Assembly: GCA_004022145.1 (NCBI GenBank)
Contig: RCNU01000002.1
From: Paecilomyces variotii
Taxonomy: Eukaryota
Length of the DNA: 64,000 nt
Reading direction: 5' to 3' (one strand)
Every line of letters begins with the position of its first letter. Positions within the stretch are counted from its first letter, which is position 1. Both the position numbers and the translations under genes were made by a program. A model generated the notes under the pieces. It saw only the letters and a list, made by a program, of their open reading frames with translations. It searched no databases and was not told the DNA's origin. Shown piece by piece: positions 15,198 through 64,000 of this stretch.

Positions 15198-16847
15198 ATG
15201 TGTATTGTCAAACTCCCTCTGGAGATCCTCCATGAAGTCGTTAAGTTTTGCATTCCTGAAGAAATCGACCAATTGTCAGAGACCTGTAGGACTCTCTACC
15301 ATGCGACACAACGGTTCCGTGCGGACCACTTGTTGAAGCGCCGCCAGTATACCGTTTTCCGATATCATAATGGGATGAATGACGATGACGAAGAAGAAGA
15401 AGAAGAAGAAGGAAAGGACGGCAACGATGACCATAGTGATGGTGGCAGCAGCGGCAACAATTCCGAGAATCACCAATTGCGCATATCCCACTGTGTCGAA
15501 TTACTGCTAAAAATTGCTCAAGAACCGCTTATTGCGCGTTATATCCAAATTGCAGATCTTCGCGGGGATTTTGAACCGTATTGCAGGCCCGACGAAGAAT
15601 ATCACATTGCATATGACGAACTAGTTTCACGGAAGACAACTATCATGGAACTGATCGAGGCGTGTCCCTTGTTGCGAGAGGCGGAAGCCGATGCAACTAC
15701 ATTCTGGGAGCATATGGTCGATGAAGACACCAAGACATTTTCACCATCATATGTCACGTTACTTATTCTGTCCTTCATGACCAATGTCAGAAAATTAGCG
15801 CTTCCCATGCACATGTCAAAGACAAGCAGTGCTGAGGATGCTCTGTTCAGGAAGGTGGCTGATACCATGGTCAGGATAGCACAGACCACGAACACAAAAA
15901 CTGGAAGCCGAGACATAGCTCTAGCTAAACTAAGAACTTTACTTCCCATGACTGGGGCTGACTATGAGGACAAGGTCGCTCTGCAGACTTTGGTACCTTT
16001 TATGTCTATTCCTTCAGTGGTTGAAGTTCTAGGCAGTAGCTGTGTTGCCCTCGACGATGGTTACACTGGCTACCCTTTCAATCCTGACTACGAAAGCTTT
16101 GGGAGAAGCCTCGAGCGATTGGAACTGATGAGTAGCACTGTGGGCGTCCGCGAAATAAGAACACTGCTGCAACAATGTTCGAAAGTCAAGGTGTTCAAGC
16201 TTGACTACACAGTCAAATGGCATGGGTGTGGGTGGAATTGGAATGCAGGTCATTTTATGCGTGCTATCGAGGATACCTGCAGTGATACTCTAGAAGATTT
16301 AGGTATCGATATTGGTGGGGATGTCAATGACATAGGTACGGGTATTGTCTCTATGAAACGGTTCAGAAGCCTCAAGCGGATCGAGCTCGATGTGCAAGTG
16401 TTTCTAGGCGTCCCTTGTGGGGGAGATATTGACCAAGCCTGGGATTATGACACCACCGATGAGGCTCCCATGGGTGATCCGGAGATTCCGAAAGTTACGG
16501 ATTTGTTGCCTGCATCTGCGGAAAAGCTATTGCTTTTTGCACAAGATTATGATGAACATGCGGAATGCCTTGAAGCGTTGTTTGCCGGTGTAACACAGGC
16601 GGAACGCGAGAAACATCTACCAAACCTCAAAACCGTCGCAGTCAAGGTCCGAACGCATAGTCGTCTAAGCCTAAGTTCTCCTGCAGACCGGGCTTCAGAC
16701 TCGGAGGAGGCCAGGACATTCGCTTCTAAAATTCGAAATAAATTCGAGGTCGCTACGAGCGCAATCAATCGCTTTGGAGGCCGCATGAGTTACGTCCGAC
16801 ATTCGAATATGGTCAGCTTTACTCCTGAAATATTCAGTTATCTTTAG
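15198..16847 (+). CDS. F-box domain protein with LRR-like C-terminal region
   Basis: N-terminal LPLEILHEVVKFC..EEIDQLSETCRTLY F-box; repeated LxxLxL segments (LERLEL, LEDLGI, LKRIELD); acidic tract encoded by a GAA/GAC microsatellite. Confidence 0.75.
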   Translation: MCIVKLPLEILHEVVKFCIPEEIDQLSETCRTLYHATQRFRADHLLKRRQYTVFRYHNGMNDDDEEEEEEEGKDGNDDHSDGGSSGNNSENHQLRISHCVELLLKIAQEPLIARYIQIADLRGDFEPYCRPDEEYHIAYDELVSRKTTIMELIEACPLLREAEADATTFWEHMVDEDTKTFSPSYVTLLILSFMTNVRKLALPMHMSKTSSAEDALFRKVADTMVRIAQTTNTKTGSRDIALAKLRTLLPMTGADYEDKVALQTLVPFMSIPSVVEVLGSSCVALDDGYTGYPFNPDYESFGRSLERLELMSSTVGVREIRTLLQQCSKVKVFKLDYTVKWHGCGWNWNAGHFMRAIEDTCSDTLEDLGIDIGGDVNDIGTGIVSMKRFRSLKRIELDVQVFLGVPCGGDIDQAWDYDTTDEAPMGDPEIPKVTDLLPASAEKLLLFAQDYDEHAECLEALFAGVTQAEREKHLPNLKTVAVKVRTHSRLSLSSPADRASDSEEARTFASKIRNKFEVATSAINRFGGRMSYVRHSNMVSFTPEIFSYL

Positions 16848-20584: not shown

Positions 20585-23500
20585 TTACTTCGCCCTCTTA
20601 ATCACCTTTCTGATCTTCGTAGCGCTGCCCGTAGGAAGGATATCTCCGCGATCTTCGTCGCTACTGCCAGTGTCGTCTCCGCTATCACTATCACTTTCGC
20701 TTTCAGAACTGCCGGATGGGGAGAAGATGTCCTTCCTCGCGGGACGGTTATTCTGGTTTGAGAAAACGCGCTGTTTGGAGTTCTTTGCTCTTTCGGCTTG
20801 TAAGGACTTTTGCTCAGCTAGCATACCTTTCAGGCTCGCACGGATGCGTTTGCCGGCTGAATCGGGTTGGGATGAAGTAAAGGATCCGAGTGAAGATTGC
20901 GCGGACGGAGGTAGCGCAGGACTATGTCCATTTGGGAGGATCCCTGTACCATTCAATCGTGCTGGGGCGGTTGATGGAGGCGGAGCACTGTTTTTGCCCG
21001 GTGGAATGGTGTCATCATCCGACTCGTCTTCAGATTCGGATTCGGACTCTGAGCTCGACGTCGATTCTGATGCCGAGGACTCTTTTTCACTGGCCGCCTT
21101 GGGAGGCGAGGCCTTACTGGGCTCCTCGGCCTTCTCAATGGGTTCGGCAGTCGGGTTCTCATGAACTTCGCCAGCACGTCTCTCTATGGCATGGCTCGGT
21201 GACTTCAATGGTGAACCTGTCCAAGCAGGAACAGAACCAGAGCGCGACCGGGCCGGTGATCTGACCCTCTCAAGCATTTCCGCCTTGGCCATTTCAGGAC
21301 CTTCATCCTCGTCATCTTCATCCCCATGCTGCTCTTTGGCGGCAGAAGTGTTATCTTCCGAGGCCACTGCTGGCTCCGCCACAGCAGACTCAGAATCCGC
21401 TTCATGATACGAGTCCTTCTCTTCGGACGCCGACTTGTTTTCAGGTTCATCTTCGTCATCTTCCGACTCAGAGGTATCTTCCGGCGATATATCTGCCTTC
21501 GTAATTTGTCGTTTGGCGACAGTGCTAGTTTGTTTGGGGGCCTTGCTGGTAAGCTTGGTCTCCTCTGTAGAACGTATCTTAGGAACTGTGGGCAAGTTGA
21601 TATCATCTGAATCAAGCGAGGAGTGTGGAAGCCCGTTGGCATTTGTTGCCTGAGTCACCTTCGGCTGCTCAGGAAGTGCTGCTGCACTTGTCTCTTTGGC
21701 CACAGGTGATTTGGACTTTGTGGCAGATTTAGACTTCGATGAAGCTCGAGAACTTAGACGATCTCCAGGATCAGCTTTTGGTTCTGATCTCTTGGCAGAG
21801 AGGGTCATGGGTTCTTCTTTCTCTAGAAGGAGCTTCTCTTTGTTTCGAAGTTTGGCTCGGAGACGATTGAGACGACTGCGCTCGTCTCTCTTGTTGCTCT
21901 TTTCTAGCTCCACGACTTCTTTCCAGGTGAAGAAGACATCCCGGAGTAAGCGCACATGTTCATGATTGCCACTCTCCTCGGCAGCCTTTATCTTCCTCTC
22001 GTATTCTGCCGACTTCTCCGCTCGAATGGCCTCTTCCTTCTTGGTTTTCTCAGCTGCCTCATTTATATATTGCTCCAGGCGTTCCCGGGGTACGTTGGCA
22101 GGGAAGACCATGGTCTGGCTGGAAGAAAGCGGCGTAGACCTCGGAGTTGATTGGTCTGCTTTAGAGCCTGTTCGCGGAGTCGATCTTGGTACAGATCGTG
22201 GTGCAGGTGCAGCCGGTGTGGTGACTATGTCCGCTTCCTCTGCAAAGGACACAGAGCGCCGTTCTTGGCTTCTTTCCAGGGGCGAATCTTTTCGCATGGC
22301 TGACCTCTTTATATGTTCTACGCCAGGACTCTGAGCCTTCGAGGGCGTGACATCAGCCTGCTGACCGAACGAAAGACGGCGAGCCACACTACTGGGAAAC
22401 AATGGGGTTGTAGATACAGGATCCCGGTTGGGAAGTCTGTCATTAGTTTCAGCAACTGGCTGCTTCCGTGGTGGGCTCTTAGTGATTCCCAGACCTAGGC
22501 CAGGTTTCACTGAGTGATCAGTGAGGCTTGGCCGCCTCTGTGGACCCGAGAACGAAGGTGCCTTCTCACGTCTCCGTACAGGCGAAGACGCATCTGTGAG
22601 CTCGATGCAGTCTTGTGTCATCCTAGGTTCTTTGCTCTTTGACCTGGTTTCGGACGGGCTGCTCGTTAGCTGTAGACGAGGCCCCTTTTGGGGAGGTAGC
22701 TGTTCGCTACTCTTCTTCCTCTTCCGCGTTGCCGCTCCCTGGGGCTTCTTCTCTACTATGGTCTGGAGAACAGGGTTGTCTATCACAACGACGGGAGACG
22801 CAACACGTTGCTTCTCCCGCGGTGATTCAGGCTCCACGTCTGTCATGTCAACATCATCCTGGGCTGTTGCATATGTAGTAGCGGCTTTTAAGTTGGTTTC
22901 TGGCTTCTGTTGCTCAAACGCAGACGCTGTCTCAATCTCGTGCGCAGACTCAGGTCGCAAGCCTGGTAGCTGGAATCGTGTTTCGACCTCTGGAATCTCT
23001 GGGCGGGCGAAAGGGTCAGGGGCAAGCTCGGGAGCCAGCTGACGAACGGGTGTCGGTGATTCTCCCAATTCTTTGCTCTCCATCCTTCTGGCTTGCGGAG
23101 TAGCCGCGACCTCGTCAGCTTGCTCTTGTTCTTGAGACGGAGGAGCCAGGGCAGGCGACTCGCGTCCCCAACGCGGAGGCGTCAGCAGAGGCTCGTCTCT
23201 CTCCACAGAGCGTACCGGAACATCGCTCTGCCTGCGACTGCCATTCGAACTGTATGGACCCTGAGAGAAACGGGACGATACCGGGGTGGTCTCCTCCTCG
23301 ATGGTCTCGAATTTAGGAACCTTTGGTTTGTTCTTCGCTTCCTCCTCCTTCATGCGTTCATAGTGCTGTGCAGCCGCGTCCCAGTCCTGGACGACAGAGC
23401 TGAATCGAGTAGGGGCATATGGCGCGGGTTTCTGAATAACGCGCACGGTGCCGCGCTGGTCAAGGCCGTCAGAGCGCGCCTTGCCATTGTCGACGAAAAC

Positions 23501-23936
23501 GTCCGCCACGGTCATATCAGGATCGAGATCCTCCGAATCATGTGCATCATCCACGAGTTTCTTGATCTCCAGGGGCCTGAGATAATCCGCCGGTTAGTGT
23601 ATATCTTCCCTTGAGACTCACTCCGCAATATGTCGAATGCCTTGGAGACTTGTTCGAGTATGGCAGTCGTATCCTCACTAGCACAGGAGGGACTTACTCC
23701 GCATCTGGCCTCAATTTCTTCCACTTGGCCTGGATCATGCCCGCCAAACCACCCAGTGTAACCTCGTCAGGATGCTCCAGGACGAGCAAAAAGCTCGCTG
23801 GCTTCCCGTTGCCACCTCCATTGCCATTCCTGTCCGAATCGTCTTTTCGCTCGGGAAGAAGACTGCGGAATAACGATAGGGCTGGTTGTATCTGCTCGCG
23901 AGGAAGGATCTTCACGGTGAGGCGAAGGAACACCAT
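20585..23936 (-). CDS. Net1/Tof2/Dnt1-like nucleolar protein (Cdc14-binding-type N-terminal domain plus long disordered region); intron 23577-23697
   Basis: Exon 1 MVFLRLTVK..FLLVLEHP..TLGGLAGMIQAKWKKLRPDAE joins PLEIKKLVDD..DLDPDMTVADVF, resembling the DLDPDFxVxDVF motif of Net1/Dnt1 N-termini. The rest is S/P/E/K-rich low-complexity sequence with a coiled coil and acidic serine tracts. Confidence 0.65.
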
Positions 23937-41521: not shown

Positions 41522-42543
41522 CTACTGGTCAAAGATCGTGCTTCTGGCGACCTCTTCTTATCTCTTCCGTTTCATCCAAGTTCTTGCTGAATTCTCCGAC
41601 TTCGGCCCTTGCACGCAGCAGGCAATCTGGCCCTAAGTAGCGGCAGACGCAGAAGATGCTCCTTGTCAGCACCTATGCCAGTCCCATTATTCACAACCTC
41701 GATAACGCGAGCAGCGGCCTTGACAGAGTCTCCGGGCTGCTTTCCATTAGAACCATTGGGATATTTCAGCATACCTTCAACGACAGTGCATTCGTAATCT
41801 TTTGTCAGACCAGCTGCCAGGGTAACAAAGGCACCTAGGATGTTTTTTGTTCTGAACCCGCCAGGCTCCACGAGTAGGACATGAATGTTGCATGGAGCGA
41901 CTTCCGCCTGGAGCGCTTTCGAGAAACCTATAAACATCCTACATATGAGTATATTCATCCCCTAAGAATGTCAAAATGTAGATGGAGATTTTTTGTAAAA
42001 CTGCCTCCCAGGGCAAACTTGCTCGACGCGTACAACGCTGACAAAGGTCGACCGGTGAGGCCAGCGATACTACTAACGTTGATGATAGTACCAGACTTCT
42101 GCGAATGCAGGTATGGAAGAGCGGCTTTAATGACGCGCATAGGTCCGTACACGTTCGTGTTAAACTGGTGATGTATTTCCTCTTCACTATAGAAAGCAGT
42201 CAGACGGTGTCTTTCTCAATATCTGCCAAGAGCCGCGTACCTCATGTCCTCAACACTTTTCAGGATCGAGTAACCAGCATTGCTAACTACCACATCGATG
42301 CGCCCTTTGATAGCTGCCTCCCCGTTTTGCTTCGTTTTTGGAGAGTCCAAATCGAGCTGCAACCATTGTCCTCCTAGAGCTTCGATTTGGGGGGTGATCA
42401 TGAGCTGCCCTGGCTGGATTTCGGGCGGTTGCAATGACTTTGTAATGACTTTGTAACCCCGTTTGAGAGCCTTCTCCGCTAATGCTTCAAGTACTAAAGC
42501 CGGAAGAAGCACCAGTGATCAGCCAGACTTGCTGCGGTGCCAT
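41522..42543 (-). pseudogene. Classical SDR oxidoreductase pseudogene
   Basis: MAPQQVWLITGASSGFST* (early stop), GRIDVVVSNAGY, NVYGPMR, IINVSSIAG, YASSKFAL, LLVEPGGFRT, QPGDSVKAA; several frameshifts. Confidence 0.85.
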
Positions 42544-43707
42544 GGTTGGCAACTGTTGGTTGCCCTTCCTTGTCCTGGTTCGTATTTATGACGGATAGTT
42601 TCCTGCCAGCGAGAAAGTGACTGATAAAGGCTCGGAATGCAAATCCAGAAGACTGATATATTACGTTGCTCCTCCTTCTGCGACCGCTAGTTTCGGAGAG
42701 ATAGACTTGATAGCTCTCGATACATAAGTGCCATATCTCCACTCGCCCCCACATGTTGGCCACAAGGCGGTAGCGGGGTTTCTTCCGCAGATCTTGGATC
42801 AGATTCCACCACGGTCCTTACCAGTTTATGGCTTCGCTGTGAGGATAAAAAAAAAAACAAACAAACAAACATTCGGGGATGACGTTTCTTTCTTTCTTTC
42901 CTTTTTTGTCAGGTACTAGTCTTTAACAGAGATAAAACCTAGCCGGGAACTGCTCTGGAGCTCTAACTTGACTCTGCCTTGACGACTGTATGATGGCAAG
43001 GATAAGAGGAATAATATGGACTACTTGGTGAAGGTATAATTGGTACCACGGAAAGACGGTAATGAGATGATGACATGACGAGAGGTGGCACCATTGTATC
43101 GTTCTGGTCATACTTGCCCACTAACTTGGCTCTTCTACTTTGGAGCTGCCGAGCAAACACCTGATAATTTATCTCTATGAAAGCCCAAGTTTTATTCATT
43201 AGTTAAGCCAGACATAATTCATTCTAGCACCTCTGTTACGGCACTCGCTTTGGACTCTAAACCGTCGGTCTCAAACTCTATACCGATCGTCAAAATATCA
43301 ATAACTGCTAGACTCTGTCACTCCTCACGTGAAGGCAGACATGCAAGGAACTTGGGTAGCCGGGCCGAGAACAAGGCTATGAGAACTAGGGAGCATTTCA
43401 ATTACAGAGTAGAAGGCTCACCGCACTCTATCTATACAACAAGCGAAGAAATCCGAGCAGTGTATTACTATGAATTAAGGAAAGAAGTAAAACAATACGA
43501 CTGTATATATACGTTACATTAAGTCATTAATTTTGTAGAGTATAGCTCTCCACAGAGTAGCTATCTGCAAAACATAAATAAGCGCCTTGGCTGGAGCCTA
43601 GGAAAAGCATTATATACGTGACTGTTTGTGAGTCTTGAATGCGCCCATTATCGATGTCGTGCAGTAATTTAGAAAATCATTGCTCATGAAATGAAATAAC
43701 GCTTCCC

Positions 43708-46700
43708 TTACAGACGTCCTAGCAACTCCTCGACGACCGGAAGCAACTGTAATATTATGTTAGCATGGTTTTCTTCGAGGGAATTCAAAGACCGGGAATG
43801 CTTACGTCAGACACGTCGTCAATGATCATGGTGGTCTCATTGACGAACTTGGGCGTCAGTAGCGTGTTGGCGTTCTTCAGGAGAGGACCAAGTCCCTTGA
43901 GGATGTCGGGAGTGACCGTGCTCGAGAGGCTTTCGACGAGTGGAGTGGCGTCGCTCAGCAACTTGGTAATTTCCTGGGTAGTCTGGTTGGTCAGGAGGCC
44001 GTTGGCATTCGTCAACAGACTATTGATCTCTTTCGTGGTCTCGGGGGTCAGCAGGTCGTTGGCATTCGTAACAAGACCATTAATCTCCTTAACAGAATTA
44101 GGCGTCAGCAAGTCGTTGGCGTTATTCACCAAGCTAACGATCTTGTCTGTGCCATTAAGCAGTTGAGTCAGCTCCTTAGTGACTTGAGGAGTCAATAAGC
44201 CGTTGGCACTGCTCAATAAGCTGGTAATCTCTTTTGTAGTCTCGGGCGTCAGCAGATCGTTGGCATTCGTGACAAGACCATTGATCTCCTTAACAGAGTT
44301 AGGCGTTAGAAGGTCATTGGCATTGGTTAGGAGACTGTCGATTTCCTTGACAGAGTTAGGCGTGAGCAGGTCGTTGGCGTTGTTCACTAGGCTGACGATC
44401 TTGTCTGTACCGTTGAGCAAGCTAGTCAGATCCTTGGTTACCTGAGGAGTCAACAAGCCATTGGCGCTATCCAACAAGCTGGTAATTTCCTTAGTGGTCT
44501 GAGGAGTCAACAGATCATTGGCATTGTCCAATAAGCTGACAATCTTGCCGGTGCCATTGAGTAACTGAGTCAGCTCCTTGGTAACCTCAGGAGTCAACAA
44601 GCCATTGGCGCTATCCAACAAGCTGGTAATCTCCTTAGTAGTCTGAGGAGTCAACAGATCATTGGCATTGTCCACTAAGCTGACGATCTTGCCAGTGCCG
44701 TTAAGTAACTGAGTCAGCTCCTTGGTGACTCCAGGAGTCAATAGACCATTGGCGCTGCCCAATAGGCTAGTAATCTCCTTCGTGGTCTGAGGAGTCAACA
44801 GGTTGTTAGCGTTGTCCACCAAGCTGACAATCTTGCCAGTGCCATTGAGCAATTGCGTTAGTTCCTTAGTGACTTCAGGAGTCAACAAGCCATTGGCACT
44901 GGTCAATAAGCTAGTGATCTCCTTAGTGGTCTGAGGAGTCAATAGGTCGTTAGCGTTGCCCAGAAGTCCAGTGATCTCCTTGGTGGTTTGTGGCGTGAGA
45001 AGACCGTTGGCATTGCTAATAAGAGCCTCGATCTCCTTTGTGTTCTGCGGCGTGAGCAGACCGCTGGCAGCATTGACAAGACCGATGACTTGGGGCAGAT
45101 CCGAGAGCAAAGTGCTAAGCGATTTGATATTCTTCGCAGTAAGCAGAGTGTTGGCGTTGTTAAGCAAGGTAACAATCTGCTGGGCGTTGTTCTTGGTAAG
45201 CAGGAAGTTTGCGTTATCAAGTAGATCCTCGATCTCCTTGGTGTTCTGCGCGGTAAGAAGACCATTTGCATTGTTGATAAGGGTGACGATCTTGGGCACA
45301 TCTCCCAGCAAGTTACTAAGAGCATTGGTGTTTCTCGTAGTGAGAAGACCATTGGCATTGTTGATAAGATTCTCGATATCCTTAGTATTCTGCGGCGTAA
45401 GTAGACCATTGGCGTTTTGGAGCAGCTCCTCGATCTCCTTGGTGTTCTGGGCGGATAACAGGCCGTTGGCGTTGTCGATGAGCGTAACAATCTTGGGCAC
45501 GTCCTGTAATAGAATCTCGAGTTCTTTGGTATTCTGAGCAGTGAGGAGGCCGTTGGCATTGTTAACAAGGTCGACAATCTTAGGCGTGCTCTGGAGCAGA
45601 GCGCTGAGCTCGTTGGTGTTTTGCTTGGTGAGCAGGGCATTGGCGTTGTTAAGCAGGTTCTCGATCTCCTGGGTGTTCTGTGCGGTGAGCAGACCGTTGG
45701 CATTGTTAATAAGGGTAACGATCTTGGGCACGTCCTGCAGCAGAGTCTCGAGTTCCTTGGTATTCGAGTCGGACAGAAGGCCATTGGCGTTGTTGACAAG
45801 GTCAATGATCTTAGGAGTGCTTTGAAGCAAGGTTCTGAGCTCATCGGTGTTCTGCTTGTCAAGCAGCGTGTTGGCGTTGTTGATGAGCGTGACGATCTGC
45901 GGAACGTCTTGCAGGAGCTTGACGATCTGTGCAGTGTTCTGATCGCTGAGGAGCTGGTTGGCGTTCTTGACCAGATCAAGGATATTGGGCACGTCTTGCA
46001 GGAGCTTGACGATCTCCGCGGTGTTCTGGTCACTAAGGAGCTGGTTGGCGTTGTCAATAAGGGTGTTGACCTTGTTGGCAAAATCCTTGGTGAGCAGCCC
46101 ACCAGCAACGTCGATAATACCGTTGAGGACAGGGATGTGCGCATCAGTCAGCACCTGCACAACGCGGGTGAAGAAGTGGACAAAGTCCTCCAAGAAATTA
46201 GGGGTGAGCACGGCTTCAATGCTACCTAGGTAGCCCTTGAGGGCACTACCAAGGCTGTTAGCGATGGCATTGCCGATCGCGTTTCCAAGATTGTTGCCAT
46301 TGCTGCCGCTCAGAAGGCTGGCCAGGTCGATGCCGCCGGTACTCGACGAACCCGAGGACGAAGCAGTCGAAGTGGGTGAGCCGGTTTCCGCGGGAGACGA
46401 AGCAGCAGAGGCCGCACTGGAGGTGATATCAGGAAGGATGTCGGAGAGGAGCCCGCCCTTGGAGTTGGAGTCCGCGCTCGCGCTGGCGGCGGAAGACGCA
46501 GAAGTGGCCGGGCTGGCGGCGGGCGAACTGTTGGCGGAAGCTTGGCTGGCAGCGGCAGCGGCAGCGGGAACCGGACTAGCAGCGGGCGACGCAGCAGCAG
46601 CAGGACTGGCGGAGGTTTCTGGTGCTCCTGCTGCGGAGGAGGCAGGCGACTGGCCAGCGCTGATAATGGAACTGAGTGGATTGTTGTCGTTATTGTCGTT

Positions 46701-46898
46701 ATTGATGTTATTGTTATTGTTGCTGGTGTCGGCCGCAGCAGCGGGCGAGGCAGCCGGCGCCTGCTGCTCGGCGGAAGACGCCCGGACAGCGGGCGCTGAA
46801 CCAGCCACCGCAGCAGAGCTGGGCGTGCCGGCCGGACTAGCCAGGACGCCCGCGCCGTGCAACAGCAGGACGGGGAGGAGAGTGGTGGAGGCACGCAT
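43708..46898 (-). CDS. Large secreted protein (~1040 aa): Ala/Ser-rich N-terminal region plus ~35 amphipathic 19/29-aa repeats; function unknown (intron ~43748-43805)
   Basis: 1037-aa ORF with signal peptide MRASTTLLPVLLLHGAGVLA and strong codon bias; GTAAGC...CTAAC...TACAG intron then final exon LLPVVEELLGRL* (stop 43708-43710). Confidence 0.85.
43810..46210 (-). repeat. Coding tandem repeat array with 57-bp and 87-bp units; 144-bp higher-order unit around 44400-44940
   Basis: Units such as LLTPQTTKEITSLLDSANG (19 aa) and LLTPEVTKELTQLLNGTGKIVSLVDNAND (29 aa); near-identical DNA such as GGAGTCAACAAGCCATTGGCGCTATCCAACAAGCTGGTAAT recurs. Confidence 0.95.
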
Positions 46899-48959
46899 CT
46901 TTGCCTAACTCGCGCGCGCGCTCGATCGGGTCCTTCTGCGTCTCGTCTACTCAACTACTTACCTCGACGAGCTGACGACAAGAAGGCTGCGCGTTCTGGG
47001 ACGAGCTTTTATGTCTCTTATGCGCCAGTGCTATCTACCCCGGATCGTCCCTTTCTCCGCACCTTTTCCTCCAGATACTGCGCAGGAGAGCTCAATCCGA
47101 CTACTAACTCGACCGAGGACTAACCGGGTCCACATGTGAGCAGCGCAAGATTTCATTTTGGCGTGATGTCAGTGGCCGCGGACAATGTCCCCAAAGTGTT
47201 TAAGCTGAGCACGCTTAGGCCTGGGACTATTGACGGTGGTGGACGCGATGGCCGCGATGCCTGCGGTGCAGCGGTAGTCGAATCGTCGACTGGCCCGGTT
47301 CCTGTCCTGCGAGTTCAACTGAGCCGCGCCGGTCAGGCACTGCGAGCCGTGCGGGTCAGGAACTGCGCACCATAACACGAAGCCCGCCTATTATTATCGA
47401 TCAGGTATTGTTAGTCTGCTGGAGTTTGACGGCCGTGCGGGGGGGAAGCATTAACTAGCAGCTTTTCCCTGATCGGCTGTTCTAACTCGGAAACACAATG
47501 AGCATAAGTATTGGGACAGCACATGAAAAGCTGTAGCTAAACCTCGGACATTATAAGGTCAATGCGTCCCTAGAGTGCGGGGTCCGTCCCTCGAGCATTT
47601 GTCCTCTTCTTTGCGAACTTGACCGTCAAACATCGCCTTTCACTGCAGCAGTGGTACGTGCACATGGGGCATATTGGTTCTCGGGTAGCTACTCACAATG
47701 CCGTTCTTCTTTCTTTCTTTCTTTTTCGCCTTCTTTTTGCATCTAGTGTACAGACATCGGATCTCACTAACTGCCCTAGTATGTGCACATGGGATGACAC
47801 CACGACCGCTATGAATTGATCTGAAATACCGATCAAAGATTGGTACTTCTCCACTGGCCACTTATCCCGTCTCGAATATCCGGGAATAGCAACCGTGGAG
47901 CTTATTTGCTGTCCTCGTGGCTGTCTATGACTGATGGCCCGAAACTTGCCAATTCATTGGTATATGCATATACGTCGAACTAGCTAGCCAGCCGGAGTAG
48001 TAGACGTGCGAGATGAGAATTGAGATAGCGTAATAGCTTTATCCGTTATTAACAGCATGGGCTGCAATATTGTGTCACTTATAACTAAGACAGGCGATTG
48101 TTCTATAGACTGTTACCTTGATTCGTACTCGTACAACAGACAACTACCGTGTACAGCCGTTTCGTGCCGCATTCAGAATTTTATTTTTCTTGGTTAATTT
48201 ATTTCAAGTCTATAGGCCCAGAATTATAAAACGCTTTCATTATACTCAGTAAACATCAAAGTATCTTCATTTTATTCATACCCGCCTAATGGTTTAATGG
48301 CTTAAGAGATCTGTTGCCAATTTCCGCAAAACAACCGACTGCCACCTCCCCAGTTTTCCCTCTAGTATAATCGCTATATGGCATCAAAGGAAGCGAATAT
48401 TCCGCGGTGTTGAGCTCGCACATTGGACGAAGAGCATGCACCCATGGCATCAAACAGAATCCCAAAAAATCACAGTAATGGTACTCGCAGGCATGCGTGA
48501 CCATGAAAAGCGGGACCTGCTGCGAGATCAGCGCGATCTGCGAGCTCTAGAGCAGCGAAGCGGGGGAGGACGGGGGAAGACCGAGGGAACCCGCCAGGAG
48601 TTGACTATCGTAGCCGCAGCTTGACTTCGTCCGTTTTCTCTATGCATATGGCTGGCTCGCCGATATTTGATCTCGTTCGCTGAATCGATTGTGCCAGAGT
48701 TCCCTAGCTTCGCTATACTCCCCTTAGATAGGCAGCTATGCGATACATCCTTGAACGCGGGTAGGCGACGGCGATTTCCCGCGCCTTCGAGTATTCTTGG
48801 GATCCCATCGAAGCTTTATGTGAGAAAAGTAGGATGGACAGATTCAAGAAACCTCTTTTTCAGGTTTCCAGAATGCGTCGGCCAGTGCAAAGCTTGTTCT
48901 CGAACAATCTGATACACCTTGCTCCAGGAGCTCGTTATCCCAAAGGGGTCACCCTCATC

Positions 48960-50470
48960 TACTGCTCGGATTGATCCTTTTTCAGCAGATCCAGGAGGTA
49001 CTTTGCGAAACTACCGTGTCTTCTATCGGATTACGACTGACATATCTAGTAGGCGATCCTAACTGGTATACACATGGTCGCTGGCTCAACCAAGATGCAC
49101 GATGCACTACACCGGAAATCTCAAATCATGAACTTTCATTTCCCTCAACTATGCGAGACGGTCATCGGTCTTTTGCCTGACACGACTAAGATTATCAACT
49201 GCAGGGGGGTTCAATAGAGTGTTTATTGTCACTTTAGACTCTGGGCGACGTGTAGTTGCCAGAATTCCGACAAAGATTGCTGGCCCACCACGGTTGGCAA
49301 CCGATCCGAGGATACAACAATGGAATACTGTATGAGAATCGATGATCGTGATAGAAAATTTGCTGATTATGTCTACAGTGCGCCCGAAGATATCAATCCC
49401 GATCCCAAAGATTTTGTCATGGAATCATAACCCCTCAAACAGAGTAGGATGGGAGTACATCTTAAAAAAACATGTTGAGGGTATTTCATTGCACGAGAAA
49501 TGGCCCTTTATGGACATGCGTTTTATGTACGAAAGCTGTTTCGTTGTAAGTCAAGGAGATGGTATCCTCAAACTTCCCGGCTTATGGCAGTCTGTAATTT
49601 CCGGATGTGCTCTTTGACGAATCTAAAAAGGCAGCCCTCGATGATAGGTTCTATATAGATCCGCACTGCAGTTCACTTATTTAGAATTGCAGCCCCGGTG
49701 AATCAGAGCTATATCATGGACCAAGTCCTAATTGTGGCCCGTGTAAGCAGACGGGAATTCGTACACACTCTGTCACTAACAAACACCTAGGGAAAGAAAT
49801 TTCTTATTGCTCAGGCTTGATAGAAACTGGCCGCGCACGCATCCATAAGCGAAGAGAGAGCGAGGTGGGTTTACTGCCTTATCGGGGATCAATTAAGGAT
49901 CATACTCGCTTATTAGACATCTGTCAAGATGCCTTGCGAGTCTTGACTAATGATCCTCGTATCCAAGAAGCTGCTCTATCGACGCCACTCTATACGGACT
50001 TGCACAAGCGAAATATATACGCCTCTGTAAGTGACACTGCAGTCATCGTCGGGATTATCGATTGGCAATCTACAAGCACCGAGGCCTCGTTTGTGTATTC
50101 CAATGAAATATCTGACGTCGCTTCTCTCCACAGCGAAGACTGCCCCAAGGACGATGCATCGGCCTCTCCACAGTATGAACGGAGGGTTAAAGATGCTTCC
50201 ATTTGTTATCAGACCTATGACGTTGCCATGAAAGGTTTCGTAACAAAGCTGCGTCTTGCGAGGAATTCGGACCCGACTTTATTCTGCCCGTTCCTCCAAG
50301 TTACCTACTGCTATACATCGTGGAGAGACAGTGCGACTGCTCTCTGCCAGGAGCTGATAGACCTTTCAGCGCGATGGGCAGAGCTTGGAATACAGATCCC
50401 AGCCCTTATTTCCCCAGTCAAGCGGAATTGATGGAACATTCCCGCCTATATAATGATTATCATTTTGAGG
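48960..50470 (+). pseudogene. APH/choline-kinase-like phosphotransferase (Aim9-like) pseudogene
   Basis: YTHGRWL, GGFNRVFIVTLDSGRRVVARIP..IAGPPRL, IPIPKILSW..NRVGWEYI, PAYGSL, TDLHKRNIY, GIIDWQ; frameshifts and stops. Confidence 0.8.
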
Positions 50471-59669: not shown

Positions 59670-60300
59670 CACGAGAAAGACAGACGCTATCATGCCTTCC
59701 GCGATGGCAATTATATTCTCCCAAAGGATGACGACGGATATGACCACCTGACATCGGCCAATCACCTGACGTCGAAGTTCATGAACGGGAGATCATACCA
59801 TGCACCTATTGAGAAGCCGTCAAGGGTCTATGATATAGGTACAGGTACCGGAATATGGGCCATAGACTTCGGTACGTTCTTTCAGTTCCGTGTCTCTACT
59901 GGTTATTAACAAATAATTGGATTTAGCGGACTAATTTCCTTCTGCAAGGTATCATATCATCTCCTGATACGCTATGCAATTCAACAGGAGATATACCAAC
60001 GATTTACGTTTAGGTTATCGGCTCCGATCTAACTCCAATACAGCCGAAATTAGTTCCTCCAAACGTCAGATAGATCGTAGAAGATGTGGAAGACTCGTGG
60101 ATGGATCTAAACCAACCATTGACTTCGTCCACGATCGTTATCTAGCTTCGTCGGTCAGAAAGATAACCCGAGGCTATTTCGCCAAAGTTACGAGTCGATT
60201 GTATCTTATCCACGATATCGATTATTTGTCTAATCAATGATTCTGATCAGGAACATGAGAACCTGGTGGCTAGATTGAATCTCAGCACTGCTATACTTTA
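59670..60300 (+). pseudogene. LaeA-like/TAM SAM-dependent methyltransferase relic
   Basis: RRYHAFRDGNYILP, APIEKPSRVYDIGTGTGIWAIDF, AD*FPSA, VIGSDLTPIQP..VPPNV, DFVHDRYLASSV, RPGG*IE; stops present. Confidence 0.85.
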
Positions 60301-60570
60301 CCCCTTCAGCCACGAGTTCCTCACCAAGGCCTCGATGCGTCATCAACGAAGTGCATGGCGTGTGCAGACCTGCGTATGACGACTCACAGAAGCCCTGCTA
60401 CTATCAAAATGGAGTAAAACTCTGGACAATAGGAATTTACATCTTGCAGGTCTAAAATCCATTTTTAGTCTTTTGGATATAAAAATATACACAGGAAGAC
60501 AGAATGCTTAAAAGAGCGGAGATATCATTCGTTTATTTTGGAGTTCAGTTATTCTTTTATGCATAGATAG

Positions 60571-61005
60571 TGTAAGGAACGGGGGTTCCTGGAGGTTGCT
60601 GGCGAATTACTCCGCCAGCGATTATAGCGAAAGAGATAGCAGCTTTGCGCATCTAGCTCAAAGAAGGGTCTACCAGTAAAATAAAGGGTTAATTATTATA
60701 ATAAAGGGTCTAATTAATATAGAAAAGGGTCTATATTAGAAGGGTCTAGTAATAAAGAATCTATATAAATAAAGAAATAGTAAGGTATATATTATATTAG
60801 AATAAATTGCTAGCTTCTAGTAAAATAATAATTTAGAGCCTATTTATATTCTAAATCTTAAGCACTTTCTAGCTTTATCTTATATAAATTCTAAAAGCAG
60901 AGAGAGTAAGATTTAATTAATTATCTTAATATTATATTTAGATTTAAGGCTTTACTATAGTCCTATAAGCTTATACTTTAGTAAAGAGCTAGGGGTATAA
61001 TAATA
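60571..61005 (-). repeat. 3' LTR of the Gypsy element (~435 bp)
   Basis: TGTAAGG at 60571 (...CCTTACA on minus strand); polypurine tract AAAAAGGGGGGGGA on minus strand at ~61006-61020 immediately before the RIP-altered LTR start TATTA. Confidence 0.65.
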
Positions 61006-64000
61006 TCCCCCCCCTTTTTAAAGGCTTATCCTTAAGCTATTATAAAGTTATTATATTAAATATAGAATATAGCTTTATAGAGATTTATAGTATAATAAAT
61101 AAAGGAGCTTTTTATTATTTTTATAGTAAAAGGTTAAGAAGTTATATAAGCTAAGAGTATTATTTATATAATATTATAAGGTTAAAATTCTAATCTCTAA
61201 TAACTATCTTTTTACCTTTTGCTATATATAGCTTTTAGTCTTAAATATATTTAAATAAAGATCTAGATATATTTTTAAAATTATAATAATACTAATAATA
61301 TAATAGTTTATTAAACTTAAAAAATTAATTATTTTTTTATTAGTTTTTAGAGCTTCTTATTCTAAGGGTAAATTATCTTAATTAATTATATTAATATAAG
61401 CTAATTTAATATAGATAATACTGCCCTAAATTTATTTTATATTTAAGTAATATAAAAAGATTCTTTAAGTAAATATTTCTATATAAGATTTTATATATTA
61501 TATGCTAATTTTTATAATATTAATAGCCTAAGAATATTACTTCCCCTTTTAAAGAGCTATTTCCTTCTTCTATCTCTAAAATAGAGAATATAGCTGCTGT
61601 TATTATAATATAGCTAAATCTAATTACTACTATAATATTAGAAAATAATCTCTTAACTATTATTAAGATATTAAAGACTTTAATTACTATTATAATATTA
61701 GAAAGAGCGCTTTTTTAAATAAGTATTACTCCTTTTATAGTTATTAATAGGTTAATATCTTTATCTACTAGTAAAAATCCTCTTATAAAGGATTTATTAG
61801 ATAAAATAAATATTATACTAGAATTAAGGCATATTTAATTTATACTCTTATTAGATTAACCTCTTACTATAGTCTTAGTAACTATATAAATAAGTCTTTT
61901 TTCCTTAATAATAGTACTAAAAAGCCTGCCTAAAAGGAAAAGGACTTATTTTATTACTAGGCTAGCCGCTATAAATAAATTAAAGATAACTCCTATTTAT
62001 ACTGTTAAAAGGCCTTAGAAATAAAATACTAAATATAAAAAGATTATTAATATAAGAACTTAAACTAAACTAGTTATTATTAAAATATTAATTAAAATTA
62101 TTATTATTATTATTATAAATATAATAATAAAAGATAGTTTTACTATCTCTAGGCTAAATAAAAAATTTCTTTTAATATCTTAAAAGATATATCTTTATTA
62201 TTTAAAGGGGCTAATTAAGAATCTAGTACTTTAGTATACTTATATTAATACTAATATTAAATATAACTACTATAATTATAAATATAAGCCTTATATTTTA
62301 ATCTTATTAGTTTATAAAAATAAGCTTACTTATTTATAAAGCCTTAGCTAAGAGGCTTATTTCTTAAATAACTATAAGTTTTTTAAAAAGGCCTATAATA
62401 AATATAAATCCTTTATAAAAATATATTTATATAAAGCGCTTACTAAGGCGGATATAAATAAGCTTATATCTATTATCTTATTAACCCTATTTTTATATAA
62501 GTAGTTTATAATATAGCTTTAATAGAAGTTACTTAAATTATTCTATTTAATAATATTAGATCTATAGTATATATAAAAAATTATATATATTATTTATAAT
62601 ATTCCTCCTTTCTTTAATAAAGAGGAAAATAAATCTATATTAATAAGATTCTATAATAATAAAGTAAATAAGTAAAAAGATTAATCTTAAGCCTATATTT
62701 TTAATTTTTACTAGGAGTAGCCTAGTTAAAATAAATTTATTTCTAAATAGACTAGCTTCTTATATTCTTATTAAAACTCTTAAACCTTTATAAATAAGTA
62801 AATAAAAAAAAAGTAATATAGATTTAATAATAAAATAATTAAATAAAACTTAAAAACCTAATAAGAAAAAAGAGAAATCTTATTAATTTTATTAACCTCT
62901 TTTTTTAAAGCTTCTTAAAGCCTTTCTTAAAGAGGTCTTATTAATAGCTTATATTATTACCTTAAATTTAACTAATATATTTTAAGTATATTTAAGGTCC
63001 TTCTTAAGCTATTATAAATTTTTATAATCTAGATAGCTCTTTTATTTAATTAAATATTATTTCTTCCTTTATATTATCTATTTATTTAAAATAGCCTTAA
63101 TCTCTTATTTTAATTTATTATCTACTAAAATCAGGTTTAAATACTTAAGTTTAGCCTTAAATCTCTAATAATAGGGCTCTAATAGAGAGATATAGAAGAT
63201 TAAATATATTCTGCCTAGATTCTTTAAAAGCTTAAGCTAATAGGCTTAAATTTTAATTCTTTCTATAACTTTATAAGATCCTAAGTATTTTATATTTAGT
63301 TTTTTAATTAATTAGTCTATCTTTAAGTTCTTTATTAAAAGGCAGATTTAGTCTCTTACTATATAGAATCTAGGCTTATATTTCTTATTATAATATTTCT
63401 ATTGTATAATAATAGCCTTTTAAAGAAATTCTTCTAATTAAGTATAAATTTTAATAAGTTCCTTTAATTAATTATTAACTACTAATATATTTATTTACTT
63501 TCTAGAGTTATATTTATCTTAATTTTTAAAGTTAAATTTATAAATAATATAAAAAGAACTTATATCTATAAAGGTATAAATTAAATTATTATATATAAAC
63601 TTCGCTATAGTTAATAAGAATGCCTAATTATTTTACTTATAATTTAAGTAAACCTAAAGATAATACTCTAATATTTAATTCTGCCTTTTAGTCTAGCTAT
63701 TAATTTAAAGATAAAATATAATACTTAAAAGTTTAGTAATTTAAATATAGTAATAAAGTTCTATCTAATATTTATTAATAAATAATATATCTTAGTTTAA
63801 TATAATTAACTATAGAGATTTAAAGTAGTTATAAATATAATCTATAATAAGGTTAGCTATTTTATCTGCCTTTAATATTTTATAGATAAAGATATAAAAC
63901 GCTATTTTTAAATAATAATCTATAATTACTAATATTAAATTATAGATAACTTCTTATTTCTCTAATAATAGCAGTCTTACTATAAAATCTATTAAAATAC
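60571..64000 (-). mobile_element. Heavily RIP-mutated Ty3/Gypsy chromovirus LTR retrotransposon (3' part; continues past the window end)
   Basis: Extreme AT/TpA richness. Minus-strand ~63170-63340 reads KNLKID*LIKKLNIKYLGSYKVIERI..AY*LKLLKNLGRIYLIFYISLLEPY, a RIP-degraded integrase GPY/F motif (KKLD..YLGPYKV...AY.L.LP....IHPVFHVSLLEPY), followed by a chromodomain-like relic, PPT and LTR. Confidence 0.88.

Follow-up and report, generated by a model that had tools for sequence, protein, structure and literature searches.

The surface biology of fungi has mostly been explained through hydrophobins, cerato-platanins, HsbA, and glycosylphosphatidylinositol (GPI) or PIR wall proteins. Hydrophobins have eight conserved Cys that form four disulfides, the repeats of Rep1-type repellents are separated by Kex2 (KR) sites, and PIR wall proteins carry Q[IV]xDGQ[IVP]Q repeats. 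Here we describe a giant repeat gene on the minus strand of a 64,000-nt stretch of Paecilomyces variotii DNA (assembly GCA_004022145.1, contig RCNU01000002.1), which as a whole is called the window. Its product, hereafter the giant, is by sequence comparison a repeat-expanded member of a Pezizomycotina-wide, Cys-free, secreted, and unnamed protein family that has no Pfam model, and its repeat units are predicted to be amphipathic helices.

The giant was compared with these classes. There was no Cys in the whole protein, by which hydrophobins were rejected; KR, RR, KK, and RK were also absent throughout, which set aside the Rep1-type repellents, and PIR proteins were rejected as no DGQ was found. 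The Pfam family HsbA (PF12296) gave no hit in the giant at E <= 1 or in its sub-segments, and none in 35 relatives at E <= 0.01. A preliminary description of this DNA, made from the letters alone, had been unable to assign the protein to hydrophobins, HsbA, Rep1 repellents, or PIR proteins and had noted the lack of KR/RR Kex2 sites, and the present comparison led to the same view. CcpA, a conidial wall protein of Aspergillus fumigatus, was rejected too, with six invariant Cys in about 235 aa according to its description (PMC6168859), compared to zero in the giant.

Two further systems came closer in character. HsbA and Mp1 are small secreted helical fungal proteins that act at hydrophobic surfaces or bind lipid. 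At E <= 10, the family profile retrieved no Mp1 chain from the PDB, and the language-model cluster nearest to a small relative of the giant was named “putative cell wall galactomannoprotein” (score 0.84), which we took as a lead only. The exchangeable apolipoproteins (apoA-I, apolipophorin-III) are secreted, Cys-poor proteins of Pro-punctuated tandem amphipathic helices without a fixed compact fold, much as is predicted for the giant. Membership among them was rejected, since their defining 11/22-residue repeats were not found, although the helical amphipathic periodicity was present; no apolipoprotein sequence or Pfam match was obtained.

Gene Structure and Repeat Architecture

The gene consists of two exons at 43708-46898, with an intron of 59 nt and a spliced product of 1043 aa. 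The open reading frame (ORF) 43785..46898 (-), of 1037 aa, was the longest of the window, and the frame of exon 1 resumed past the intron for 12 codons, up to a TAA at 43708. The position 43708, at which the gene had originally been ended, was found to be the stop codon of this short second exon.

At least part of the locus was contained in 20 of the 24 runs listed for it. Nine of these 20 were recorded as RNA, and they came from three food-fermentation or food metatranscriptome studies. The RNA evidence was taken from the assembled contigs of four runs and is silent on expression level. Three of the four runs compared (X7, X11, and X1) had a contig that lacked exactly the 59 nt at 43747-43805, and a contig of X6 retained them. 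Moreover, X7 had loose ends with T runs ahead of 43498 and 43512, and X11 had one ahead of 43508; they mark the poly(A) end of a minus-strand RNA. The 5' end of the transcript was not found in the RNA contigs, whose adapter-tagged ends also fell at internal places. Transcription had been proposed as a check on the gene, and it was provided by the intron removal in three runs and the poly(A) end in two. These results indicated that the gene is real and is transcribed, spliced, and polyadenylated; the longest ORF of the window, the processed RNA, and the relatives elsewhere together place it far beyond chance.

Several ORFs of 193-401 aa lie in other frames or on the opposite strand inside the repeat gene, at 44939-46144 (-), 44956-45537 (+), 45621-46229 (+), and 46237-46908 (+). 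These ORFs are no separate genes but a side effect of repeat DNA that is periodic and poor in stops.

The order of the protein is a signal peptide, an Ala/Ser-rich stretch of ~210 aa, an N-cap, 30 tandem units, and a C-cap. The N-terminus, MRASTTLLPVLLLHGAGVLA followed by SP, resembles a signal peptide when read by eye, and the protein looks secreted. The stretch at aa 21-229 contains 26% A, 24% S, 9% N, 8% P, and 8% G and is probably an O-glycosylated linker. The region from aa 268 to 967 is built of 30 regular units, of which 17 are 19 aa long and 13 are 29 aa long, and the addition of the N-cap (aa 230-267; grand average of hydropathy (GRAVY) +0.82) and of the degenerate C-terminal units (76 aa, aa 968-1043) brings the number to about 33-35. 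As seen in the unit logos, the 29-aa unit is the 19-aa unit with a 10-aa insert behind position 14. The insert contains K-I-V-T-L-I, which is rich in beta-branched residues. The periods returned by Tandem Repeats Finder were 57, 87, 144, and 231 nt.

The positions L1, L2, L13, and A17 were invariant in the units and N18 nearly so, while T3, I/L10, L/I/V14, and the N/S two positions ahead of L/I/V14 were near-invariant. The array as a whole contained no C, W, Y, M, or H, only two F and two R, 20% Leu, 14% Asn, 13% Thr, and 32% ILMFVW, with a GRAVY of -0.10. The C-terminus (DDVSD followed by LLPVVEELLGRL) has six charged residues among its last 20 and does not look like a GPI tail. The preliminary description had read most of this from the letters: a signal peptide, about 200 aa rich in Ala/Ser/Pro, some 35 units of two lengths with an optional 10-aa insert, an array without Cys, Trp, or Tyr, no GPI tail, and divergent, cap-like first and last units. 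All of these points were borne out, and the figure of about 35 units was a fair one.

An Unnamed Family of Fungal Proteins

An exhaustive HMMER search with aa 230-1037 against 1.84 billion representative sequences gave 74 hits at E <= 0.001, of which 12 reached 1e-10 and 2 reached 1e-30. A search for homologs had been suggested with the preliminary description, in which the family was overlooked; the giant is no orphan. The source names of the relatives were all “hypothetical protein”, from Fusarium fujikuroi, Elasticomyces elasticus, Thozetella, Neoarthrinium moseri, and Pyronema domesticum, and no convincing Pfam family was found in any relative. Word searches, made in open-access text, returned nothing relevant on secreted fungal proteins with 19-residue or helical repeats.

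Many of the relatives are small proteins of 90-260 aa that match just the last ~125 residues of the giant. Free of Cys, they begin with a signal peptide and have two to four 19-aa units between an N-cap LLxPxFLxD...NQTKxLI and a C-cap LLTPxFVxxTxxLIxDVAP. The giant shares with them the signal peptide, the N-cap, the LLTPxxhxxhxxLhxNAxx units, the C-cap, and the lack of Cys, and differs in its 30 regular units, compared to two to four in most members. Furthermore, the small members close with a short, strongly conserved hydrophobic helix rich in Ser/Ala/Gly, LVSAVSQxIxxLxSAxLGG (P0016, P0039-P0041, P0044, and P0055), at whose place the giant carries the polar 12-residue last exon.

A profile, A2, was built from 30 small members with the query left out. 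Among the 834 six-frame ORFs of the window, its sole match was the giant ORF, with E 3.9e-118 over 13 domains, and the best domain scored 91.8 bits at aa 915-1034. The profile recovered 61 of the 74 hits, 30 of these 61 being its own members; one recovered hit, a phage tail protein (5.8e-7), is probably spurious. The giant has the features by which the family was recognized, namely a signal peptide (by eye), the N-cap LLxPxFLxD, and the C-cap LLTPxFVxxTxxLIxDV, followed directly by the intron. The database relatives read through at the same site (..DVAPV..), and the position of the intron just past the C-cap is likely conserved in the family.

Longer members of 369-1292 aa were also found, the 1292-aa one being a hypothetical protein of F. 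fujikuroi. The closest relatives, P0077 (Elasticomyces, 46% identity, partial) and P0010, are laid out like the giant, with ...DNANGLLT... 19-aa units, and together with P0005 they carry a Ser/Thr/Ala-rich stretch at the place of the linker. Among 66 other proteins of the family, the commonest spacing of the motif L[LIVF][TS]P was 19 (13 times), followed by 38 (5 times), and the spacing 29 of this strict motif did not occur. These spacings indicated that the 19-aa unit is family-wide by sequence, and that the 29-aa unit may be lineage-specific.

Two metagenome loci, L001 3061-3834 and L002 2845-3567 (26-27% identity), were rejected as unrelated since they were matched solely via the pattern PNSVKEI. 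They encode Cys-containing repeat proteins of the form IVIPxSVxxIxxxAFxxCxSL, which is BspA-like.

Selection on the Repeat Units

Among the 33 differences listed between the coding sequence of the window and those of the metatranscriptome strains, 20 were synonymous and 13 nonsynonymous. The differences listed from aa 230 onward comprised 15 synonymous and 6 nonsynonymous ones, compared to 5 and 7 in the low-complexity part. All of the indels between strains were multiples of 3 nt, including a 6-nt in-frame deletion that one strain carries at 46548 in the low-complexity coding part. A 3-nt deletion was also seen at 47100, ahead of the start codon.

Stronger evidence came from within the gene, where four 48-aa (19 + 29) super-repeats at aa 652-843 were compared with one another. 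Their protein identity was 85-94% and their DNA identity 80-88%, and the proportion of synonymous differences (pS) was 0.37-0.62 compared to 0.03-0.09 for nonsynonymous ones (pN). The silent sites are nearly saturated between these copies, and no exact DNA repeat of 50 nt or longer was present in the coding sequence. Since the protein identity was kept in spite of this, the units are old duplicates, each of which is held at the protein level by purifying selection, the exposed positions included. Selection on the gene, which had been surmised from its intactness, was thus seen both in the synonymous excess among strains and between the super-repeats.

One contig of X7 lacked 144 nt (44497-44640), which corresponds to one 19 + 29 super-repeat, with a joint that is ambiguous over 34 nt. 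One contig of X6 repeated 57 nt (45001-45057), which precisely encode the 19-aa unit at aa 614-632. These variants may represent a polymorphism of unit number between strains or an assembly artefact; copy-number variation is unproven since the contigs were built from 31-mers inside the repeat.

Predicted Helical Structure

The AlphaFold2 (AF2) model of aa 230-1037, from 15 aligned sequences, contained 41 helices and no strands by DSSP, with a mean predicted local distance difference test (pLDDT) of 48.3 and a predicted template modeling score (pTM) of 0.26. The model of the small relative P0039, from 30 sequences, consisted of helices alone, with a pLDDT of 72 and a pTM of 0.27. Its last two units and terminal helix had a local pLDDT of 77-92, with about 90 in the latter, and there the helices, ~17 residues long, were broken at the L-T of LLT(P/K). 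The hydrophobic moment of the array peaked at 100-115 degrees per residue and was flat at 160-180 degrees, and the hydrophobic positions 10, 13, 14, 17, 1', and 2' fell on one face of the helix. An all-helical secondary structure is therefore well supported by the models. The amphipathic helices proposed in the preliminary description agree with the predicted helices, with the moment peak, and with the shared face; its T-P helix boundary was reproduced in the better-modeled relative, where AF2 broke the helices at the T-P junction.

No confident tertiary fold emerged from the models (pTM about 0.27), and the own model of P0039 in the ESM Atlas had a pTM of 0.21. The fold searches were run with the model of the small relative, as that of the array (pLDDT 48) was too poor to serve as a query. 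Foldseek gave no PDB match at E <= 0.001, so that the combination of AlphaFold and Foldseek, which had been named as a check, returned helices only and no known fold. VIA-align against 48,161 chains reached a best Z of 6.8, with generic helices throughout. In the ESM Atlas, the array scored 0.78 at best and the small relative 0.84; these values lie below the bar and are leads at most. A PDB search by the family profile had a designed coiled-coil barrel, 8qad, as its sole hit (E 4.1e-5), which was taken as compositional.

Likeness to Leucine-Rich Repeats

The 29-aa units showed a weak resemblance in register to leucine-rich repeats (LRRs) of the ribonuclease inhibitor (RI) type, which had been overlooked before. 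The Legionella protein of PDB entry 3goz aligned in a 29-residue register over several units; E was 4.7e-6 with the whole protein as the query and 4.5e-8 with aa 267-533. The period of 29 residues and the pattern P-x-x-V-T-x-L ... N-x-L ... E-L-x-x-L-L-x-x-(V/I)-P are common to both proteins. In addition, 6 of the 13 non-family representative hits carried LRR_1 or LRR_6 and matched the part of the array that is rich in 29-aa units. This raises the alternative that the array is an LRR-like alpha/beta solenoid, in which the block I-x-x-L-h-x-N-A-N-x-L-L would be the LRR “highly conserved segment” with its Asn ladder, and units of 19 and 29 aa would differ just in the length of their variable segment, which in the longer units would form an RI-type helix. 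Such an arrangement would neatly explain the interchangeable lengths and the beta-branched K-I-V-T-L-I of the insert. The LRR positions 1, 4, and 9 were occupied by I/V/L, L, and N in 31, 31, and 30 of the 31 units, respectively, with the Leu of position 11 being given by construction through the delimitation of the units.

The core of the pattern did not agree. Position 6 is a core Leu in every LRR class, and RI-type repeats need it hydrophobic (LxxLxLxxNxL), but it was hydrophobic in 0 of the 31 units while position 5 was hydrophobic in all 31, which is the i, i+3, i+4 pattern of a helix. The Asn that is conserved family-wide lies two residues before LRR “position 9”, and 19-aa units are too short, being shorter than any known LRR class. 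Neither the whole protein nor four sub-segments matched a Pfam LRR model at E <= 1. The strands of a parallel sheet were absent from the AF2 model of the array (mean pLDDT just 48), and the hydrophobic moment showed no beta periodicity.

The E-values themselves have to be read with caution. ARM_CPL3, YfdX, and OHCU_decarbox were above their Pfam cut-offs in the whole protein, and at E <= 1 each array segment “matched” 18-24 unrelated families of Pfam, in which few stretches, if any, passed by themselves. The three families were rejected as repeat inflation, as they dissolved when the protein was split into segments. Since so many unrelated families were matched per segment, E-values of repeat against repeat are inflated, which applies to 3goz as well. 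Taken together, we regard an LRR-like fold of the array as quite improbable.

Arrangement of the Helices and Possible Role

The reading that we tentatively prefer, while granting that it could well be wrong, is that the amphipathic helices form a Pro-punctuated chain, which would act at a surface or interface outside the cell. Each 19-aa unit would form one amphipathic helix of ~17 residues, with a Leu/Ile stripe through positions 10, 13, 14, 17, 1', and 2' and a break at the conserved L-T-P junction, and the 10-aa insert would add a second short element past the D-V-P or N-G-T-G turn. The whole would be a long Pro-punctuated chain of roughly 43 helices. There, the narrow hydrophobic stripe might lie against other copies of the chain or on a surface of hydrophobic or amphiphilic character, for which the wall or spore, lipid, the substrate, and the air-water interface are candidates, with the face rich in Asn/Thr/Lys/Glu toward water. 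The role could resemble that of an exchangeable apolipoprotein or of HsbA: the protein could cover a surface as a non-covalent coat, or serve as an adhesive or wetting agent, and the many units would lend it high avidity. A flexible chain is favored by the Pro-punctuated helices with two-residue breaks, by the narrow Leu/Ile stripe, and by three predictions without compact packing. A belt-like rather than a compact state is suggested by the pTM of 0.26-0.27 in both AF2 models and the still lower value of the Atlas, and by the lack of a fold match.

A number of observations weigh against the flexible chain. The mean hydrophobic moment was ~0.40 at a mean hydrophobicity of 0.06, which is moderate and outside the values typical of strongly surface-seeking helices. 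The net charge of the array is acidic (43 K+R vs 72 D+E), HsbA/Mp1 membership went undetected by sequence, and neither a GPI-like tail (by sequence reading) nor a PIR motif that could anchor the protein in the wall was seen in it. The exchangeable apolipoproteins have a period of 11/22, compared to 19/29 in the giant; the charge pattern of the giant, net acidic with Lys near the center of the polar face in the unit logos, is not that of class A, and it has conserved caps, unlike those proteins. The low pTM may reflect the shallow alignments (15 and 30 rows) and not a missing fold. Finally, the distinct hydrophobic N- and C-caps, the invariant A17 and near-invariant N18, the share of ILMFVW, and the conservation of exposed positions as well as of the core agree better with a solenoid that is packed and capped than with a loose belt.

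In that alternative, the units would stack like those of ARM, HEAT, or TPR proteins into a rigid, capped alpha-solenoid or rod, with the Leu/Ile stripe as its continuous core. The protein would then serve as a long extracellular spacer, or as a multivalent scaffold that binds a periodic ligand or partner through its conserved polar surface. The terminal caps are divergent and more hydrophobic than the units, and unit number varies between conserved caps across the family, as in solenoid families; the small A17 stands invariant together with N16/N18, exposed positions were kept despite saturated silent sites, and nearly a third of the array is ILMFVW. The ARM/HEAT alpha-solenoids are also helical tandem repeats, and a 48-aa super-repeat of the giant would hold three helices like an ARM repeat. 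ARM_CPL3 scored 43.1 bits with the whole protein against a cut-off of 26, but this score was inflated by the repeats: no stretch passed in the sub-segments, only ~28 of the 122 profile positions (about 82-110) were matched, over and over, and none of the 35 relatives matched. Furthermore, AF2 predicted no solenoid packing for the array or for the small relative, even with 30 sequences for the latter, and the fold searches gave generic helices only. The two-residue breaks between helices of 17 residues are also probably too short for ordinary helical hairpins. We consider the rigid solenoid possible, if rather unlikely.

The composition of the array also invited comparison with late embryogenesis abundant (LEA) proteins. 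An LEA-like extracellular protectant of hydration or against desiccation would have helices that are loose in solution and become ordered on drying, and its Asn/Thr/Gln/Ser-rich helices would protect the wall or spore in low-water solid-state fermentations. This would suit the content of Asn and Thr, the tertiary prediction of low confidence, and the transcription of the gene in food-fermentation samples, and also an array free of Cys and aromatic residues, apart from the two F counted in it. However, 20% Leu and a GRAVY of -0.10 make the array far less hydrophilic than LEA proteins, and no LEA family was among the Pfam hits. A hydration shield also needs no strict hydrophobic stripe or capping motifs. 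Such a protectant is hardly to be expected here.

The amphipathic chain at an interface could be part of a wider proposal, which we put forward as a speculation and think unlikely to hold in full. According to it, the LLTP unit of 19 residues with its optional 10-residue inserts would be a new capped repeat fold, absent from solved structures, and the family, from proteins of 100 aa to the giant of 1043 aa, would comprise unrecognized Cys-free fungal surface-active or adhesive coat proteins. These would do the jobs of hydrophobins and HsbA at hyphal, spore, or substrate interfaces, with an avidity set by the number of units. The family stands apart from the classes by which fungal surfaces are explained: it is widespread in the Pezizomycotina, Cys-free, and secreted, and it has no Pfam model, structure, or name. 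The giant is one extreme member, transcribed in food fermentations and with every unit under purifying selection. If the family is surface-active or adhesive, it would be a new class of interface proteins, relevant to solid-state fermentation, foaming, wetting, and the attachment of molds to substrates; if the units form a solenoid, a repeat of 19 residues would be new among repeat architectures. With either reading, the giant and its family are a well-defined target for structure determination and knockout.

Gene Features and Genomic Surroundings

The features of the gene are collected in Table 1.

TABLE 1. Features of the giant repeat gene and their positions in the window.
Feature	Position	Strand	Evidence
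Coding exon 1 (aa 1-1031)	43806..46898	-	Donor GTAAGC right behind codon 1031; RNA contigs connect 43806 with 43746
Signal peptide (aa 1-20), cleavage likely past VLA	46839..46898	-	Reading by eye; similar start in family members
Low-complexity Ala/Ser/Asn/Pro/Gly-rich linker (aa 21-229)	46212..46838	-	Composition; similar stretch in closest relatives
N-cap (aa 230-267), Phe/Val-rich divergent unit	46098..46211	-	Matches the family start LLxPxFLxD...; hmmsearch domain 2 of the small-member profile
Repeat array (aa 268-967), with 17 short (19-aa) and 13 long (29-aa) units	43998..46097	-	Unit delimitation
Degenerate last units and C-cap (aa 968-1031), including LLTPKFVNETTMIIDDVSD	43806..43997	-	Best single domain of the small-family profile; family-wide motif LLTPxFVxxTxxLIxDV
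Intron, 59 nt, phase 0	43747..43805	-	GTAAGC...CTAAC...ACAG, canonical fungal; removed in RNA contigs
Coding part of exon 2, LLPVVEELLGRL and stop	43708..43746	-	Sequence; long relatives of the P0005 type finish with a similar LLPxxxxLLxxL
3' untranslated region	43498..43707	-	Ends at poly(A) sites ~43498-43512

The window also contains ordinary fungal genes, namely those for an amino-acid permease, a protein kinase, a TCP-1 chaperonin, a cyclophilin, and alcohol dehydrogenase (ADH)-like and NmrA-like proteins. Downstream of the giant gene lie ORF pieces of ADH-like and short-chain dehydrogenase/reductase (SDR)-like proteins, and no ORF with a family match was found in the ~2.8 kb upstream of it. 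The preliminary description had called the giant gene intact in an otherwise decaying neighborhood. Such decay was not established, as the downstream pieces could be split by introns, with the SDR-like one possibly frameshifted. The SDR-like gene at 41572-42518 (-) consists of three ORF pieces, of which the middle one matched adh_short (7e-17). Two copies of the peptide YKVI, encoded in different frames near 42433-42458, point to a small duplication or a frameshift.

At 49132-50431 (+), consecutive ORF pieces of 67, 93, and 248 aa were found with an in-frame stop at 49333-49335 and no Pfam match; the interruption could be an intron or the mark of a decaying gene. The ORFs 15198-16847 (+), of 549 aa, and 20585-23554 (-), of 989 aa, had no Pfam match at E <= 0.001. 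At 60001-64000 the GC content drops to 28% and then to 17% at the end of the window, compared to 42-57% elsewhere, and this part is an AT-rich block of the kind found in fungal DNA that is centromere-proximal or affected by repeat-induced point mutation.

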